Virus record (IMG/VR): IMGVR_UViG_3300006056_000027
Span: 1 to 64,000 of that record
Direction: 5' to 3' (one strand)
DNA length: 64,000 nt
Origin: a virus
Taxonomy: Duplodnaviria; Caudoviricetes
Shown: positions 3,822 through 21,307 of the stretch, piece by piece
Numbering within the stretch: the first letter of the stretch is position 1
How the letters are laid out: each line of letters opens with the position of its first letter
The notes under the pieces: generated by a model
What the model was told of the DNA's origin: nothing
Database searches by the model: none
Seen by the model: the letters and a program-made list of their open reading frames with translations, nothing else
Made by a program: the position numbers and the translations under genes

Positions 3822-3863
3822 ACCTCTTTACTGGAGATATGGCTGAGTTAATTATGGATAATT

Positions 3864-4238
3864 ATGAATTCAAAACAAAAAGGTAATATTGGAATTGGCA
3901 TGGCTATTGCCCATTTCACAAAACTTGGACTTACAGTATCTTTGCCTCTTACTGATAGTCAAGATTATGATATTATTGTAGATATAGACGGTGTTTTACA
4001 AAAAGTGCAAGTAAAATATACTGCAAGTAAAGCAACTAGTAATCACTACATAGTGCCATTAAGATCTATTAGCGGTACTACTCGAAAAATTTATAAAACC
4101 ATCATAGAAACAGATATAGACATTTTGTTTATATATTCTGAAGATGGTAACTCTTATTGTCTTTCAATTAATGATTTGTCCAATGTTAATATGTTGACAC
4201 TGAATGAAGAATTTAAAGAAAAATATTTAATTAAATAG
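3864..4238 (+). CDS. PD-(D/E)XK homing-type endonuclease
   Basis: KQKGNIG...DYDIIVD...KVQVK motif typical of intron-associated PD-(D/E)XK nucleases. Confidence 0.8.
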   Translation: MNSKQKGNIGIGMAIAHFTKLGLTVSLPLTDSQDYDIIVDIDGVLQKVQVKYTASKATSNHYIVPLRSISGTTRKIYKTIIETDIDILFIYSEDGNSYCLSINDLSNVNMLTLNEEFKEKYLIK

Positions 4239-4331
4239 TGAGTTGGATGAGCGGTTTAAATCGGTATCCTGCTAAGATATTACTCGTACTAATAATACGG
4301 GTCGTGGGTTCAAATCCCACACTCACTGCCA
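4237..4331 (+). tRNA. tRNA-Ser(GCT)
   Basis: AGTGAGT/ACTCACT-G-CCA, loop CTGCTAA, long variable arm. Confidence 0.92.
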
Positions 4332-4374
4332 CTAACTATCTCCGCCAATTTAACTATTCCTTCTGGAAACAACT

Positions 4375-6093: not shown

Positions 6094-6221
6094 TACGACA
6101 TAGTGTAATGGTAGCACGTATAAAAATTTCTGTGATAACTTCCTTCTCCTTAATAGGATGCGATAATTACAGTTACTTCTATTGGGTAGATAAGGTCTGG
6201 GTTCGATTCCCAGTGTCGTAA
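6094..6221 (+). ncRNA. tRNA-like / permuted Y RNA chimera 1
   Basis: tRNA acceptor, D and T arms; anticodon arm replaced by a ~65 nt module with GATGCGA...GTTACTTC; no encoded CCA. Confidence 0.7.
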
Positions 6222-6929: not shown

Positions 6930-7017
6930 GCGGACGTAGCCCAGCGGTCGAAGGCACTGGATTGCAAATCCAATTAGAGAAATCTACGCGTCTGTTCGAA
7001 TCAGACCGTCCGTTCCA
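6930..7017 (+). tRNA. tRNA-Cys(GCA), long variable arm
   Basis: Loop TTGCAAA, U73-CCA. Confidence 0.88.
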
Positions 7018-7880: not shown

Positions 7881-7957
7881 CCCGAATTAGCTTAGCTGGT
7901 CTAAAGCTGCCCCCTCTAAAAGGGCCATCACAGGTTCGAATCCTGTATTCGGGACCA
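7881..7957 (+). tRNA. Amber suppressor tRNA (anticodon CTA)
   Basis: CCCGAAT/ATTCGGG-A-CCA; anticodon loop CT-CTA-AA (7914-7920); canonical T arm. Confidence 0.88.
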
Positions 7958-7967
7958 ATTTTTTAAC

Positions 7968-8051
7968 GGTACAGTTCCCGAGCGGTCAAAGGGAATGTCT
8001 TGATAAGGCATCACGAAAGTTTCGCAGGTTCAAATCCTGCCTGTACCACCA
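7968..8051 (+). tRNA. tRNA-Ile(GAT), extended variable arm
   Basis: Loop TTGATAA, CCA. Confidence 0.88.
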
Positions 8052-8722: not shown

Positions 8723-8807
8723 TGCGGTGTGTCAGAAGTCTGGTATCTGGGAGGGCTCATAACCCTCTGCGTAAGCCTCGTGGGTTCGAATCCCACCTCC
8801 GCTACCA
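8723..8807 (+). tRNA. tRNA-Met(CAT), initiator-like
   Basis: Three G-C pairs closing loop CTCATAA; unpaired 1:72; CCA. Confidence 0.85.
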
Positions 8808-11317: not shown

Positions 11318-11393
11318 GGGAATGTAGTTTAGTCGGTTAAAATACAGGATAATAATCCAGGAGCCAGTGGTTCGAATCCACTCTTTCCCACCA
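11318..11393 (+). tRNA. tRNA-like gene, undetermined anticodon (6-nt loop)
   Basis: Good D and T arms and CCA; anticodon loop TAATAA. Confidence 0.65.
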
Positions 11394-11397
11394 TAAT

Positions 11398-11473
11398 GAT
11401 TGAGTAGCTTAGCAGGTAGAGCAAAGGTGGTTATACATCTTCTGCGCTGGTTCGATCCCAGCCTCTTTCGCCA
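11398..11473 (+). tRNA. tRNA-like gene, undetermined anticodon (6-nt loop)
   Basis: D and T arms, CCA; loop GTTATA; two acceptor mismatches. Confidence 0.6.
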
Positions 11474-11706
11474 ATTTTAATCGTAAGTGCTCCCAAGGGT
11501 AAAAGGAATCCCCGTTCATATAAATATCTTATGTCAGGCTGTAATGACAGGACACAGAGAACAGCTACGATTAAATCAACTTAAAAACAGAAGGTAATAT
11601 AGAATGTCAAAAACAGCTAGTGGTATTAGTGGCTACGTTTATACAGCTAAAAGTATTGGTGATTCATTTCAACCATTTTATCGGTTTACTCAGAAATAAA
11701 AGAATT

Positions 11707-11776
11707 CGGAAGGTAGCTCAGTTGGTAGAGCGGGACATAGCAGTCCGCGTCGATGGTTCGAATCTATCCCTTCCGA
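11707..11776 (+). tRNA. tRNA-like gene, shortened anticodon arm
   Basis: Canonical TAGCTCAGTTGGTAGAGC D arm and T arm; GGAC-ATAGCA-GTCC anticodon arm; no CCA. Confidence 0.6.
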
Positions 11777-11786
11777 CAAATTAAAT

Positions 11787-14191: not shown

Positions 14192-16123
14192 ATGAGCGGT
14201 GCTATCCCTCAAATCCCTCAATCTTCGTATTACAAAGTAACTCAAGTCAATGGCAAACCTGCTTTTGTACTTCATGATAATTCTTTCCGTTATCTGCTTG
14301 TGAACAATTTTGATATTTTAAATAAAACAGTTATTCATGATGATGATACTGATGCAGTAAAGCGTGAAAAGAACAAGATTATGATACCTGTCGATGCTTT
14401 TATTGAAATGTTTGTAAAGGCTGCTGCAGATGCTTATGCTCATGGTGGTTTAATTTCTGTTTTGCACATGGTTGATTTAACTCAGCGTACAAGTGATACC
14501 AGTTTAAGCTATATCAATTATGATGAAATTTACACCTTAGAAGAATCTTTGGAAGATGATAAGGTTTCTACTGAAGACAAAGTAAAGAACTCTGCTCAGT
14601 TAGAAGTTTATTACAAAGAACGTTCTAATCTTCGTTTGGCTTTTATTGCACTTGCTAATTACTGTATTGAAATTGCATATATCAACCTTGTTGCTTTATT
14701 AGCAAAATTTGATAAAGACGAACCTTTATCTTTCATGGAGCTGCTCACAGTTGCTCGTGAAAAACGTGGTTCTCCATTGGCAATTGAAATTAAAGATGGC
14801 CATAAAGTTATTTCCAATTTACTTCGTGCAACTTTAGAAAGTAGTGCCTTTACTGGTCCATATATTCAGCTTACTTATACTGCTTATTACCATGACGGTA
14901 CTAGCTTTAATGCTAAGCAAGTTCAAAGTACCATTGATGGCTATGATGACTTAATGCAGCCTAGTCAAGCTGGTTTAAGCGTTCCAACGCAAGAGTTGAA
15001 AGATAAACTTATTGCTCGTGCAAATTTATATATCAAATACACTGGTAATGGTCCTTACTATGCAAGAAATACTGGTGTAATTATTCAAGATCGTGGTTGG
15101 TTCATTGCTAAGTTTAATGGCACTGGTCGTGTAATGATTGATACTACTGGTATGCGTGTTTCTATGCCTAACTACAGCAAGTATTGGCCACAAGGCAGCA
15201 TGCATAATCAAGACAATGGTAGCAGCAATCGTAGCAAAGGTAAGCATGCTCATGAGTTAAGTGATACTCATAAATATGCATTGACTCCATTTATCTATGG
15301 TTTCTCTTTTGTGTCAAAAGTGTGGGGCGAATTAGTTGTAGAAAACATTGGCGAAATTTCATTCCGTAACGATGCGTATGACAAACTTGTTCTTGATAGT
15401 GATACTAAAGGCTTAGTACGTGCTCTTGTAGATAATACAATTGGTGGTGCTGAAAAAGACTTTATTGACAACAAAGGTGGTGGTTGTATCTTCTTGTTAG
15501 AAGGTGTTCCTGGAACTGGTAAAACCTTAACTGCAGAATCTGTTGCTGAAACATTGCAACGTCCTCTGTATTTGGTTGGTGTTGGTGAACTTGGTACTAA
15601 CGTTGTTGAGCTTGAAGAAAACTTGAAGCGTGTATTAGATATTGCATCTGCATGGAATGCTGTGTTATTATTAGACGAAGCAGATATCTTTATGGAACAA
15701 CGGTCAGAAATGGACGTTGAACGTAATGCAATGGTAAGTATTTTCTTACGGTTGCTTGAATACTATCAAGGTATTATGTTCCTGACTACGAACAGAGCTG
15801 ATAATATTGACCAAGCTTTTTACTCACGTATTAGTTTAGCAATTAACTATCCAGACCTTAACGTTCAAAGTCGTTCAATCATTTGGACTAACATCCTTAG
15901 CCTTTACTCGAAAGAGTTCGATACCTCTACGGTTGATATTGCTGTTCTTGCAAACCATGACATCAATGGTCGTCAGATTAAAAATGCCTGTCGTATCGTA
16001 TCTGCATTAGCCCGTTATCACAAACGTGAGCCAAGAATGTCAGATTACATCATGATCTTAGATCGTATGGGCAAGTTTGTTAAACCAAGCGGTACAGTTA
16101 AAGCATTGCCTTTAGCTGCATAA
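14192..16123 (+). CDS. AAA+ ATPase
   Basis: Walker A GVPGTGKT, Walker B LLLDEAD, FLTTNR, SRH AFYSRI. Confidence 0.9.
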   Translation: MSGAIPQIPQSSYYKVTQVNGKPAFVLHDNSFRYLLVNNFDILNKTVIHDDDTDAVKREKNKIMIPVDAFIEMFVKAAADAYAHGGLISVLHMVDLTQRTSDTSLSYINYDEIYTLEESLEDDKVSTEDKVKNSAQLEVYYKERSNLRLAFIALANYCIEIAYINLVALLAKFDKDEPLSFMELLTVAREKRGSPLAIEIKDGHKVISNLLRATLESSAFTGPYIQLTYTAYYHDGTSFNAKQVQSTIDGYDDLMQPSQAGLSVPTQELKDKLIARANLYIKYTGNGPYYARNTGVIIQDRGWFIAKFNGTGRVMIDTTGMRVSMPNYSKYWPQGSMHNQDNGSSNRSKGKHAHELSDTHKYALTPFIYGFSFVSKVWGELVVENIGEISFRNDAYDKLVLDSDTKGLVRALVDNTIGGAEKDFIDNKGGGCIFLLEGVPGTGKTLTAESVAETLQRPLYLVGVGELGTNVVELEENLKRVLDIASAWNAVLLLDEADIFMEQRSEMDVERNAMVSIFLRLLEYYQGIMFLTTNRADNIDQAFYSRISLAINYPDLNVQSRSIIWTNILSLYSKEFDTSTVDIAVLANHDINGRQIKNACRIVSALARYHKREPRMSDYIMILDRMGKFVKPSGTVKALPLAA

Positions 16124-16128
16124 GCTTA

Positions 16129-16151
16129 ATAGCGGGTACTTTGCCCGCTAT
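16129..16151 (+). terminator. Hairpin after AAA gene
   Basis: ATAGCGGG/CCCGCTAT stem; weak U tract. Confidence 0.45.
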
Positions 16152-16193
16152 GTATTCCACGAATAGCTGAGATGGATTAGCTATAATGATTTT

Positions 16194-16269
16194 GCCTTCC
16201 AAGCTAACTTAGTAGAAGCGACTGACTGAAAATCAGTAGGATGTGGAGCGTAACCACAGGTCGGCACCA
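16194..16269 (+). tRNA. tRNA-Phe(GAA), divergent
   Basis: ACTGA-CTGAAAA-TCAGT; atypical T loop AGCGTAA; CCA. Confidence 0.8.
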
Positions 16270-16286
16270 TATATAAGAATCAATGT

Positions 16287-16637
16287 ATGAAGTGTAAATT
16301 TCATAAATGTGAAAATGAAGCCAGGGAAAACTCCTATAAAGGCCATATTCCATTATATTGTTCTAAATCTTGCAAAACAAAAGATGCAGTAAATGCACAT
16401 AGGCAACGCAGAAAACAGTTGTTTGTAGATTATAAAGGCGGCAAGTGTCAGTGCTGTGGATATAATAAAACAATTGCAGCACTACAGTTTCATCATCTTG
16501 ATCCAACTCAAAAAGATTTTGAATTAAGTCGTGCCGTAACAGTTGCCTTTGAAGTTGCTAAGCCAGAATTAGATAAATGTATTCTTGTATGTGCTAATTG
16601 TCATGTAGAAATTCATCAGGGTCTTATCTTAATCTGA
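16287..16637 (+). CDS. HNH endonuclease
   Basis: GGKCQCCGY...LQFHH...LVCANCHVEIH. Confidence 0.88.
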   Translation: MKCKFHKCENEARENSYKGHIPLYCSKSCKTKDAVNAHRQRRKQLFVDYKGGKCQCCGYNKTIAALQFHHLDPTQKDFELSRAVTVAFEVAKPELDKCILVCANCHVEIHQGLILI

Positions 16638-16697
16638 AAAGCTTGAGAGATTGGCTCGATACCAATTTTGTGGACCAATTTATTACAATATGCTGTG

Positions 16698-16771
16698 GTG
16701 GTCTTATCCTAATGTAAGGACCCTCCCTGTGAAGGAGGTATATGACAGGTCGAGTCTGTCAGGCCACACCA
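16698..16771 (+). tRNA. tRNA-His(GTG)
   Basis: Loop CTGTGAA, CCA, upstream G available as G-1. Confidence 0.88.
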
Positions 16772-16779
16772 ATCTTATC

Positions 16780-16920
16780 GGGGATGTAGCTCAGTCGGTA
16801 GAGCAGCCGTTTAAACAAAGCGACTCATAGCTTTTTACTCATACTTTGTATGTTGCAAATATAAGTCTTACTTCTAATCCACACAGTTGGTCATTGGTTC
16901 GAATCCAATCTTCCCCACCA
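16780..16920 (+). ncRNA. tRNA-like / permuted Y RNA chimera 3 (CCA end)
   Basis: Canonical D and T arms, GGGGATG/CTTCCCC-A-CCA, internal GTTGCAA...TTACTTC module. Confidence 0.78.
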
Positions 16921-17019
16921 ATTTTGTAATCATTATTTTATGAAATCTGTTATTTGTAATCGTTTCTAGATTCTTTTATACGTTTTTATATTATTGTGAT
17001 CGTTTATATAGATTTTATT

Positions 17020-17523
17020 ATGGCTAATGTTATTTATCCTCCTACTTCTTTATTACAAGCTCGTAGTTCTATTCGCTGGGTTTCGCTATTCTTAGCTGGC
17101 TCAATTGAAATGGGTTCTGCTGAACCTTGGCAAGATGAAGTTATATCTTTACTGTCTGATCATAAAGATTTGACCATATTTAATCCTAGACGTGCTGATT
17201 GGGATTCTTCTTGGAAACAAGAAATTGGCAATCCTCATTTTAAAGAACAAGTCACATGGGAATTAAATGCCTTAACTGCATCTGATGTTGTTGTGTTTTA
17301 CTTTGATGGTAATACTAAGTCTCCAATATCAATGTTTGAATTAGGATTGATGGCTGCATTTAGTTACTATAAAAAGATCCTTGTTTACTGTCCAGATGTA
17401 TTCTGGCGCAAAGGTAATATTGATATAGTTTGTGAAAGATATCATATTCCTGTTTATTCTGATAAATCTGAATTTATGACTAATCTTAAAGATCTTATTG
17501 ATAATTTTGAGATTGATTTATAA
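17020..17523 (+). CDS. Nucleoside 2-deoxyribosyltransferase-like protein
   Basis: LFLAGSI...FNPRR...QVTWE...SPISMFELG. Confidence 0.8.
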   Translation: MANVIYPPTSLLQARSSIRWVSLFLAGSIEMGSAEPWQDEVISLLSDHKDLTIFNPRRADWDSSWKQEIGNPHFKEQVTWELNALTASDVVVFYFDGNTKSPISMFELGLMAAFSYYKKILVYCPDVFWRKGNIDIVCERYHIPVYSDKSEFMTNLKDLIDNFEIDL

Positions 17524-18670: not shown

Positions 18671-18804
18671 TGTAGTGTGGTCCAGCGGTCAGGACGCCTA
18701 AATCTCTGTTTTTCAATTTATTACTCTTAGTTGTTGCAACAGATAACAGTTACTTCGCACTCATAAAGCGGGAGGCATTGGTTCGAATCCAATCACTACA
18801 TCCA
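18671..18804 (+). ncRNA. tRNA-like / permuted Y RNA chimera 4 (CCA end)
   Basis: TGTAGTG/CACTACA-T-CCA, D and T arms, GTTGCAA...GTTACTTC module, residual CTCATAA loop. Confidence 0.78.
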
Positions 18805-18826
18805 AATAGATAGATAATGTAATAAT

Positions 18827-18935
18827 GTGGCTGTGAAGGAATTGGTAGACTTGGGCGAATAAAAGCGTCCGTTGTGAATAACTCTGATAACAGACAATAT
18901 CAACAATGTAGGTTCGACTCCTACCAGCGACACCA
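18827..18935 (+). tRNA. Leu(TAA)-like tRNA with 8-nt loop and oversized variable arm
   Basis: Leu-type D loop GGAATTGGTAGAC, A73-CCA, ~35 nt variable region. Confidence 0.65.
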
Positions 18936-21220: not shown

Positions 21221-21307
21221 GCTCGTGTCGTCTAGCGGTCCAGGACAACGCCCTTTCAAGGCGTGGTGTTTATCACCTCGTGGGTTCAAATCCCATCACG
21301 AGTACCA
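21221..21307 (+). tRNA. tRNA-Glu(TTC), long variable arm
   Basis: Loop CTTTCAA, GGTG/CACC extra stem, CCA. Confidence 0.88.

Follow-up and report, generated by a model that had tools for sequence, protein, structure and literature searches.

A phage tRNA-Phe gene split by a second tRNA-Phe gene and an HNH endonuclease gene: a candidate case of intron-less homing

Introduction

How does a phage tRNA-Phe gene come to lie in two pieces, with a second tRNA-Phe gene and an endonuclease gene between them? This question is raised by a locus in a 64-kb stretch of DNA (the window), which is the start of a 120,647-bp contig of an uncultured virus with an estimated completeness of 66%. It is established that homing nucleases of phage tRNA clusters spread not only themselves but also nearby tRNA genes. 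SegB of the phages T4 and T6 is a GIY-YIG homing endonuclease that is encoded in a tRNA gene cluster (PMC2330249, PMC13096335). It recognises a T-arm motif of tRNA genes and drives the inheritance of the neighbouring tRNA genes (PMC2330249); in addition it remodels tRNA loci (PMC13096335). Phage tRNA alleles decide the outcome of host defences that target tRNA (PMC13096335), so that the turnover of these alleles may have direct consequences for fitness.

Results and Discussion

Layout of the locus

The tRNA array occupies about 4.2–21.3 kb of the window, as judged with Rfam and ARAGORN. The features of the split locus and its two neighbours are as follows.

14192–16123: AAA ATPase gene, 643 aa, directly before the split tRNA-Phe locus
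16157–16182, plus strand: 5' remnant of the outer (resident) tRNA-Phe gene, with acceptor strand, U8-A9, D arm and position 26
16157–16163: outer acceptor 5' strand CCACGAA, then TA
16166–16181: outer D arm GCTG / AGATGGAT / TAGC, with an 8-nt loop containing GG
16182: outer T26
16183–16193, plus strand: left junction spacer ATAATGATTTT, 11 nt
16194–16269, plus strand: inner tRNA-Phe(GAA), anticodon at 16228–16230, CCA encoded (16194–16266 plus CCA)
16287–16637, plus strand: free-standing HNH (His-Me finger) endonuclease gene, 116 aa, intact
16634–16677, plus strand: 3' remnant of the outer tRNA-Phe gene
16634–16640: anticodon-loop-like CTGAAAA, containing the HNH stop codon
16641–16645: outer 3' anticodon-stem strand GCTTG
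16646–16649: outer variable region AGAG, 4 nt
16650–16666: outer T arm ATTGG/CTCGATA/CCAAT
16667–16673: outer acceptor 3' strand TTTGTGG, then A73 at 16674 and CCA at 16675–16677
16698–16771: tRNA-His, directly after the split tRNA-Phe locus

The order is thus outer 5' piece, 11-nt spacer, inner tRNA-Phe(GAA), HNH gene and outer 3' piece. A first, sequence-only reading had described the halves of one tRNA-Phe gene as separated by a tRNA-Phe(GAA) and an HNH ORF. On reading the sequence we find each of these parts in its place, and the architecture is indeed that of a resident tRNA-Phe gene split by a tRNA-Phe gene and an HNH gene. Comparison with other phages, described below, largely supports the view that a selfish nuclease gene and a second tRNA-Phe gene were inserted into a phage tRNA-Phe gene. 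A scan of 15900–17100 for promoters and terminators gave none above the shuffled background.

The outer halves belong to one dead gene

The two acceptor strands of the outer gene pair at 7/7 positions, with one G-U. We counted as an equally good 5' partner any sequence that offers 7 acceptor pairs, no more than one of them G-U, and after these a D stem of 4 bp whose loop contains GG. Such a partner is expected 0.004 times per 600-nt upstream window, a chance expectation obtained from 2000 random 7-mers on the remainder of the contig. When the insert was deleted in silico with many pairs of end points, ARAGORN returned a tRNA frame from 16157 to about 16677 every time. From this expectation and the constant ARAGORN frame we conclude that the halves belong together. 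One may object that the contig was assembled from a metagenome and that the isolated halves (16632–16690 and 16140–16187) find no match in Rfam, where the pieces are too short to score. A chance resemblance or an assembly artefact is nevertheless very improbable given the low expectation, and the locus has no repeats that could mislead an assembler. Furthermore, the same kind of arrangement is found again in the window and in other phages. Exact pattern searches of IMG/VR with either outer half gave 0 matches, as did a gapped pattern search for an intact tRNA-Phe of the outer type.

Could the outer gene still be functional? The halves keep a perfect acceptor helix, the D arm, the T arm and CCA, as one would expect if the gene were functional and the insert of about 450 nt were removed from the RNA by an intron or by protein-dependent splicing. 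Against this stands the anticodon stem, which has no 5' strand: nothing at the junctions pairs with GCTTG, and both ATAAT after position 26 and TTAAT before the loop fail. The spacer at 16183–16193 is consequently not the old anticodon-stem strand, positions 27–31 are missing, and the "anticodon loop" is assigned by register only. Because the stem cannot re-form, the outer gene is dead even after removal of the insert, and it was rightly called destroyed. Also against RNA joining, a search of 15900–17200 with Rfam gave no group I intron and no other ribozyme or Rfam family at E values up to 10, in line with the earlier statement that no group I intron core is visible. No intron core was found, the flanks form no anticodon stem, so that no tRNA would be restored, and the insert contains a complete tRNA with its own CCA. 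Removal of the insert at the RNA level is therefore hardly credible.

The outer gene was probably a tRNA-Phe

Of the relatives, the closest informative one is L031, a metagenome contig whose AAA ATPase is 44% identical and which contains a tRNA array too. Proteins 98% identical to the neighbouring AAA ATPase are P0001 and P0122–P0128, and one metagenome scan for its relatives gave only distant ones (at most 69% identity). The tRNA-Phe of L031 has the acceptor CCATAAT/ATTGTGG-A, compared with CCACGAA/TTTGTGG-A in the outer frame, so that the first three bases match; none of the other L031 tRNAs starts with CCA. For the remaining orthologous tRNAs of the two phages only the first 2–4 acceptor bases are common, apart from tRNA-Tyr, which is identical. 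In addition, CTGAAAA sits in the exact register of an anticodon loop and is followed by five stem bases, and the 4-nt variable region starts with AG, a hallmark of the phage tRNA-Phe class discussed below. Based on the L031-like acceptor, the register of CTGAAAA and the AG-type variable region, we accept the Phe identity of the outer gene.

One reservation concerns the outer T stem ATTGG/CCAAT, which occurs elsewhere in the array only in two tRNA-shaped non-coding frames, B (16780–16920) and C (18671–18804). Together with a weak Rfam match to YrlA at 16726–16834 (16.8 bits), this would fit an outer frame that never was a decoding tRNA-Phe but a tRNA-shaped, Y-RNA-like non-coding RNA hit by an insertion. 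The same three Phe-like features, with the 5-nt stem strand, argue against this alternative, and we regard it as improbable.

Judging by its L031-like acceptor and by the similar extent of acceptor sharing in the other orthologous tRNAs, the outer piece looks vertically inherited. Over positions 8–47 the inner tRNA is 82% identical to the L031 tRNA-Phe, a closer match than that of the outer D arm. "Old" and "new" alleles are for this reason not cleanly separable by ancestry; recombination within the tRNAs may have blurred the distinction.

Frames B and C, along with a third frame A (6094–6221), have normal acceptor, D and T arms, with 45–70 nt replacing or standing beside the anticodon arm. 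B and C are similar over about 70 nt (z = 13) in addition to their common T arm, and A and C have ACAGTTACTTC in common. The idea that these 45–70-nt insertions are decayed HNH insertions was rejected: A and C show no similarity to the HNH gene, and frame B is marginally similar to its 3' end (P 0.03).

The inner tRNA-Phe is of a widespread phage class and has a flawed acceptor stem

In Rfam the inner gene (16194–16266) reaches 32.5 bits, which is above the gathering score of 29 but the lowest value in the array, and ARAGORN detects it only at a lowered threshold. The same program finds no other tRNA-Phe on the contig. The gene is odd in having no GG in the D loop, a T loop AGCGTAA in place of the usual TTCGAAT-like form, and a variable region of 4 nt. 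A pattern search of IMG/VR for this D arm with a GAA loop after it returned 115 stretches, and analysis of 80 of these revealed that the odd features define a widespread class of phage tRNA-Phe. In this class the D-loop base and position 55 of the T loop covary perfectly (80/80): a D-loop A goes with G55 in 28/28 cases and a D-loop G with T55 in 52/52, as if the tertiary pair 18:55 had been swapped. The inner tRNA conforms to this rule, and its elbow is hence that of a working class. The class members (L108–L187 in our IMG/VR set) have A8-A9, a D loop without the usual GG and unusual T loops.

The acceptor stem of the inner tRNA, by contrast, contains two adjacent mismatches, T4·C69 and T5·T68, and is thus not a fully paired stem of 7 bp. 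Within the 80 class members, 62 have no acceptor mismatch, 18 have one and 0 have two. The inner gene had been described as a complete tRNA-Phe(GAA); this is correct for the GAA cloverleaf, which lies above the gathering score, and needs to be qualified for the acceptor stem with its two mismatches. By its sequence we consider the inner gene to be a true tRNA-Phe by descent, and it may still function today. It may, however, itself be decaying, in which case the compensation for the loss of the resident tRNA-Phe may no longer operate.

The nuclease belongs to an HNH family of phage tRNA arrays

The 116-aa ORF matches PHROG 2255 (HNH endonuclease) with an E value of 1.4e-25, and its score with Pfam HNH (PF01844) is 20.6 bits at a gathering cut-off of 21.4. 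An HNH enzyme is defined here by the beta-beta-alpha-metal motif with the catalytic His/Asn/His and two CxxC zinc pairs, and the ORF retains two CxxC pairs, the HH, the N and the H. C54, C57, H69, H70, C102, N104, C105 and H106, which are invariant in 10 family members, are all present, as is H110, which is nearly invariant (at least 90%). A search against solved structures gave nothing beyond a weak similarity (E 0.036) to the HNH portion of a group II intron maturase. The PHROG match and the invariant residues identify the protein as HNH and not GIY-YIG, which places it outside the SegB family.

With tblastn, relatives were detected in 317 phage records. They lie inside tRNA arrays in nearly all of the 24 IMG/VR loci, and also in cultured jumbo phages and in Yersinia phage fHe-Yen9-04. 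The family appears to be specialised for phage tRNA arrays and almost confined to them. Its reading frames often finish within the first bases of the next tRNA. In the split locus the stop codon TGA (16635–16637) falls inside CTGAAAA of the old anticodon loop, just as the sequence-only reading had it. The C-terminus GLILI-stop resembles the GLIKI-stop of a homologue in another locus (L011), so that most of the ORF's end would belong to the nuclease from the outset and only the last bases possibly derive from the old tRNA.

Two further features of the family were seen. Its members very often adjoin tRNA-Asn(GTT), as in L013, L020/L021, L026, L027, L105 and L106. Directly upstream of the HNH genes of L008–L012 (at about 2585–2710; 2757–2832 in L011) there are tRNA-like sequences missed by ARAGORN, with a perfect acceptor helix, a T arm and extra sequence between the D and anticodon arms. 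The first ATG of the HNH frame (MFQGSS...) lies inside the T arm of this sequence in L008 and L012, and directly after its 3' end in L011.

Related arrangements in other phages

A natural pair with and without the nuclease is found in vibriophages. In Vibrio phage PC-Liy1 an HNH homologue, 53% identical to the 116-aa protein over residues 30–110, lies between tRNA-Trp and tRNA-Asn; KVP40 is without the HNH gene. The DNA of the two phages is 100% identical on both sides of the HNH region. In KVP40 the interval contains two tRNA-Asn(GTT) genes; in PC-Liy1 it consists of DNA of unrelated sequence, the HNH gene and only one tRNA-Asn. This tRNA-Asn differs from the KVP40 copy at many positions, and the homology resumes exactly at CCA. 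The two phages are a filled and an empty site for the HNH homologue, and co-conversion of flanking markers is seen there; it would have taken place at the split tRNA-Phe locus as well. From phage phi-pp2 a 465-nt insert in a KVP40-like tRNA cluster is described, with a changed adjacent tRNA-Met (PMC3468402). KVP40 also has an unannotated tRNA-Asn-like gene upstream of tRNA-Asn-1, at about 858–933 of L107.

Orphan 3' ends of tRNA genes are found at further loci. In L030 the HNH gene is followed by tRNA-Gln, 2 bases, and then a second T arm and a Gln-type acceptor strand with G73. In L025 a Cys-like tRNA precedes an orphan T arm and acceptor strand; the latter has T73, and the orphan is probably of the same type (Cys) as the linked tRNA. 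In L011 an orphan T arm with its acceptor strand begins 16 nt behind the HNH stop codon, a layout as at the split tRNA-Phe locus. In L224 a relative of the PD-(D/E)XK nuclease described below is linked to a tRNA-Tyr, behind which stand an orphan variable arm, a T arm and an acceptor strand of the Tyr type. We also considered whole split tRNAs around other HNH genes and dismissed them, since most such "long frames" are chance occurrences in a 2.5-kb window; only the orphan 3' ends are convincing. The gene order is tRNA then HNH in the split locus, but HNH then tRNA in most of the parallels.

The window itself holds a second nested cassette.

3833–4347, plus strand: nested cassette of a nuclease gene and tRNA-Ser, between Ser-type tRNA ends
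from 3833: Ser-type 5' end GGAGATA TG GCTGAG
3864–4238: PD-(D/E)XK nuclease ORF (Pfam PDDEXK_5, E 3.3e-21)
4237–4331: tRNA-Ser(GCT), then 5 nt, then TATCTCC-G-CCA

The outer ends of this cassette are perfectly complementary and of the Ser type, and relatives of the PDDEXK_5 nuclease lie in tRNA arrays at 12/15 loci. The expectation that nuclease genes in phage tRNA arrays travel with a tRNA of the same specificity is borne out by the KVP40/PC-Liy1 pair, the orphan ends in L030, L025 and L224, and this second cassette.

A homing model for the split locus

We favour intron-less homing by a tRNA-array HNH nuclease with a linked tRNA-Phe allele, to which we assign a probability of about 0.68. In this model the HNH enzyme, or its ancestor, would cut the resident tRNA-Phe gene of a naive phage in a mixed infection. 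The break would be repaired from the nuclease-bearing genome, whereby the nuclease gene and the linked tRNA-Phe allele are copied in. The old allele would carry the cleavage site, and the inner allele would be immune. The copied block would have come to lie in the resident gene after position 26 and before the anticodon loop, with loss of the 5' anticodon-stem strand, leaving that gene as two dead end-pieces. In further homing into intact alleles, these pieces could act as short arms of homology. The capacity of the array to decode Phe codons would be, or would have been, maintained by the linked tRNA-Phe. Elsewhere flanking homology would usually give a clean replacement or only a 3' stub; here the block ended up inside its target, and both tRNA ends therefore remain. 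The comparisons lend good support to the proposal that the HNH gene probably brought its own replacement tRNA-Phe, and the two genes would have arrived in one insertion event.

The locus could also have been formed in several unrelated steps and not by one cassette. Either the HNH gene inserted alone and the second tRNA-Phe was moved or recombined in later, or a nuclease-driven segmental amplification was followed by deletions. Indeed, SegB drives the segmental amplification of tRNA and nuclease units via microhomology (PMC13096335). We found no conserved unit of tRNA-Phe and HNH in other loci; in L116 and L132 a tRNA-Lys separates the tRNA-Phe from the HNH gene. The acceptor mismatches of the inner tRNA could moreover be a scar of recombination, its 5' strand being L150-like and its 3' strand L127-like. 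This course of events, however, needs more steps than a single insertion, the inner and outer tRNA genes have no recent repeat in common, and the nested logic recurs with another nuclease at 3833–4347. Overall we judge such a stepwise origin unlikely, though it deserves to be kept in mind.

Comparison with known systems and implications

The homing reading calls for a comparison with known mobile elements. By analogy, the HNH gene would work like SegB-type homing, but with an HNH enzyme and a nested layout of the same isotype. SegB likewise comes from a free-standing gene among the tRNA genes of a phage array. The enzyme cleaves within tRNA gene sequence, the adjacent tRNA genes spread along with it, and its co-localisation with tRNAs is widespread. 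SegB differs in its GIY-YIG fold and in its location between tRNA genes, whereas the block described here lies inside a tRNA gene and has left both ends of the target. The F-Tfl enzymes of phage T5 are of the HNH type, and their ORFs likewise lie within a phage tRNA gene cluster; we know of no nested tRNA remnants in T5. As site-specific endonucleases of the T5 tRNA cluster they enter our comparison through the work cited in PMC2330249. The KVP40-like vibriophages have an HNH homologue, present or absent, that adjoins a divergent tRNA allele of the same specificity. Unlike the split locus, they display a clean replacement via flanking homology without target halves, and the HNH gene precedes the tRNA.

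SegF and SegG of T4 are intronless homing enzymes. MobE of T4 is another (PMC2790892). As proposed here, the T4 Seg and Mob enzymes cut a nearby gene in a naive genome and co-convert flanking markers, and the linked allele is immune. Their targets, however, are protein genes that stay intact, while here the target is disrupted and a paralogue supplied. Some integrative elements have tRNA genes as insertion sites and bring a replacement 3' end with them. They have in common with the split locus the tRNA gene as target and a displaced tRNA remnant at one border, but they use an integrase and restore the same gene by a partial copy. At the split locus an integrase is absent, the accompanying tRNA gene is whole and separate, and the target is not restored.

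What the locus would add to the known picture is that a nuclease gene can sit inside a tRNA gene without an intron, the loss being covered by a linked tRNA of the same specificity. As far as the two nested cassettes in the window indicate, this logic may have arisen with at least two nuclease folds. If it is general, it would provide a concrete mechanism for the rapid replacement of tRNA alleles in phage arrays, and a nuclease gene, a tRNA gene and an orphan tRNA end of the same type would be the signature to search for.

One may speculate further that phage tRNA arrays host a general class of selfish, "isotype-matched" cassettes, which would have a preference for attacking resident tRNA genes of the same specificity and would then replace them or nest in them. 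This idea is tentative, and we would put its chances at somewhat less than even. Such a cassette would consist of a nuclease of any fold (HNH, PD-(D/E)XK or GIY-YIG) and a tRNA gene, and the tRNA homology itself would be the recombination arm. If true, such cassettes would act on tRNA alleles as a gene drive, which could account for how quickly phage tRNAs turn over and for their odd structures, and perhaps for an escape from host defences that cleave tRNA.

Other observations in the array and its relatives

Atypical array members are located at 18826–18935, 11318–11777, 6930–7017, 7968–8051, 8723–8807 and 21221–21307. In one Leu-like gene of the array the anticodon loop has 8 nt and the variable arm is very long, and three genes have 6-nt loops. 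The Cys, Ile, Met and Glu genes are 84–88 nt long, and a CUA suppressor tRNA is found at 7881–7957. In the closest JGI relative (L076, 2060–4915) the match to the AAA ATPase spans 2856 nt for 607 residues, with 69% identity in the best segment. Since the region is divided among ORFs of 426, 263 and 185 aa, the gene seems to be interrupted by about 1 kb of inserted DNA.
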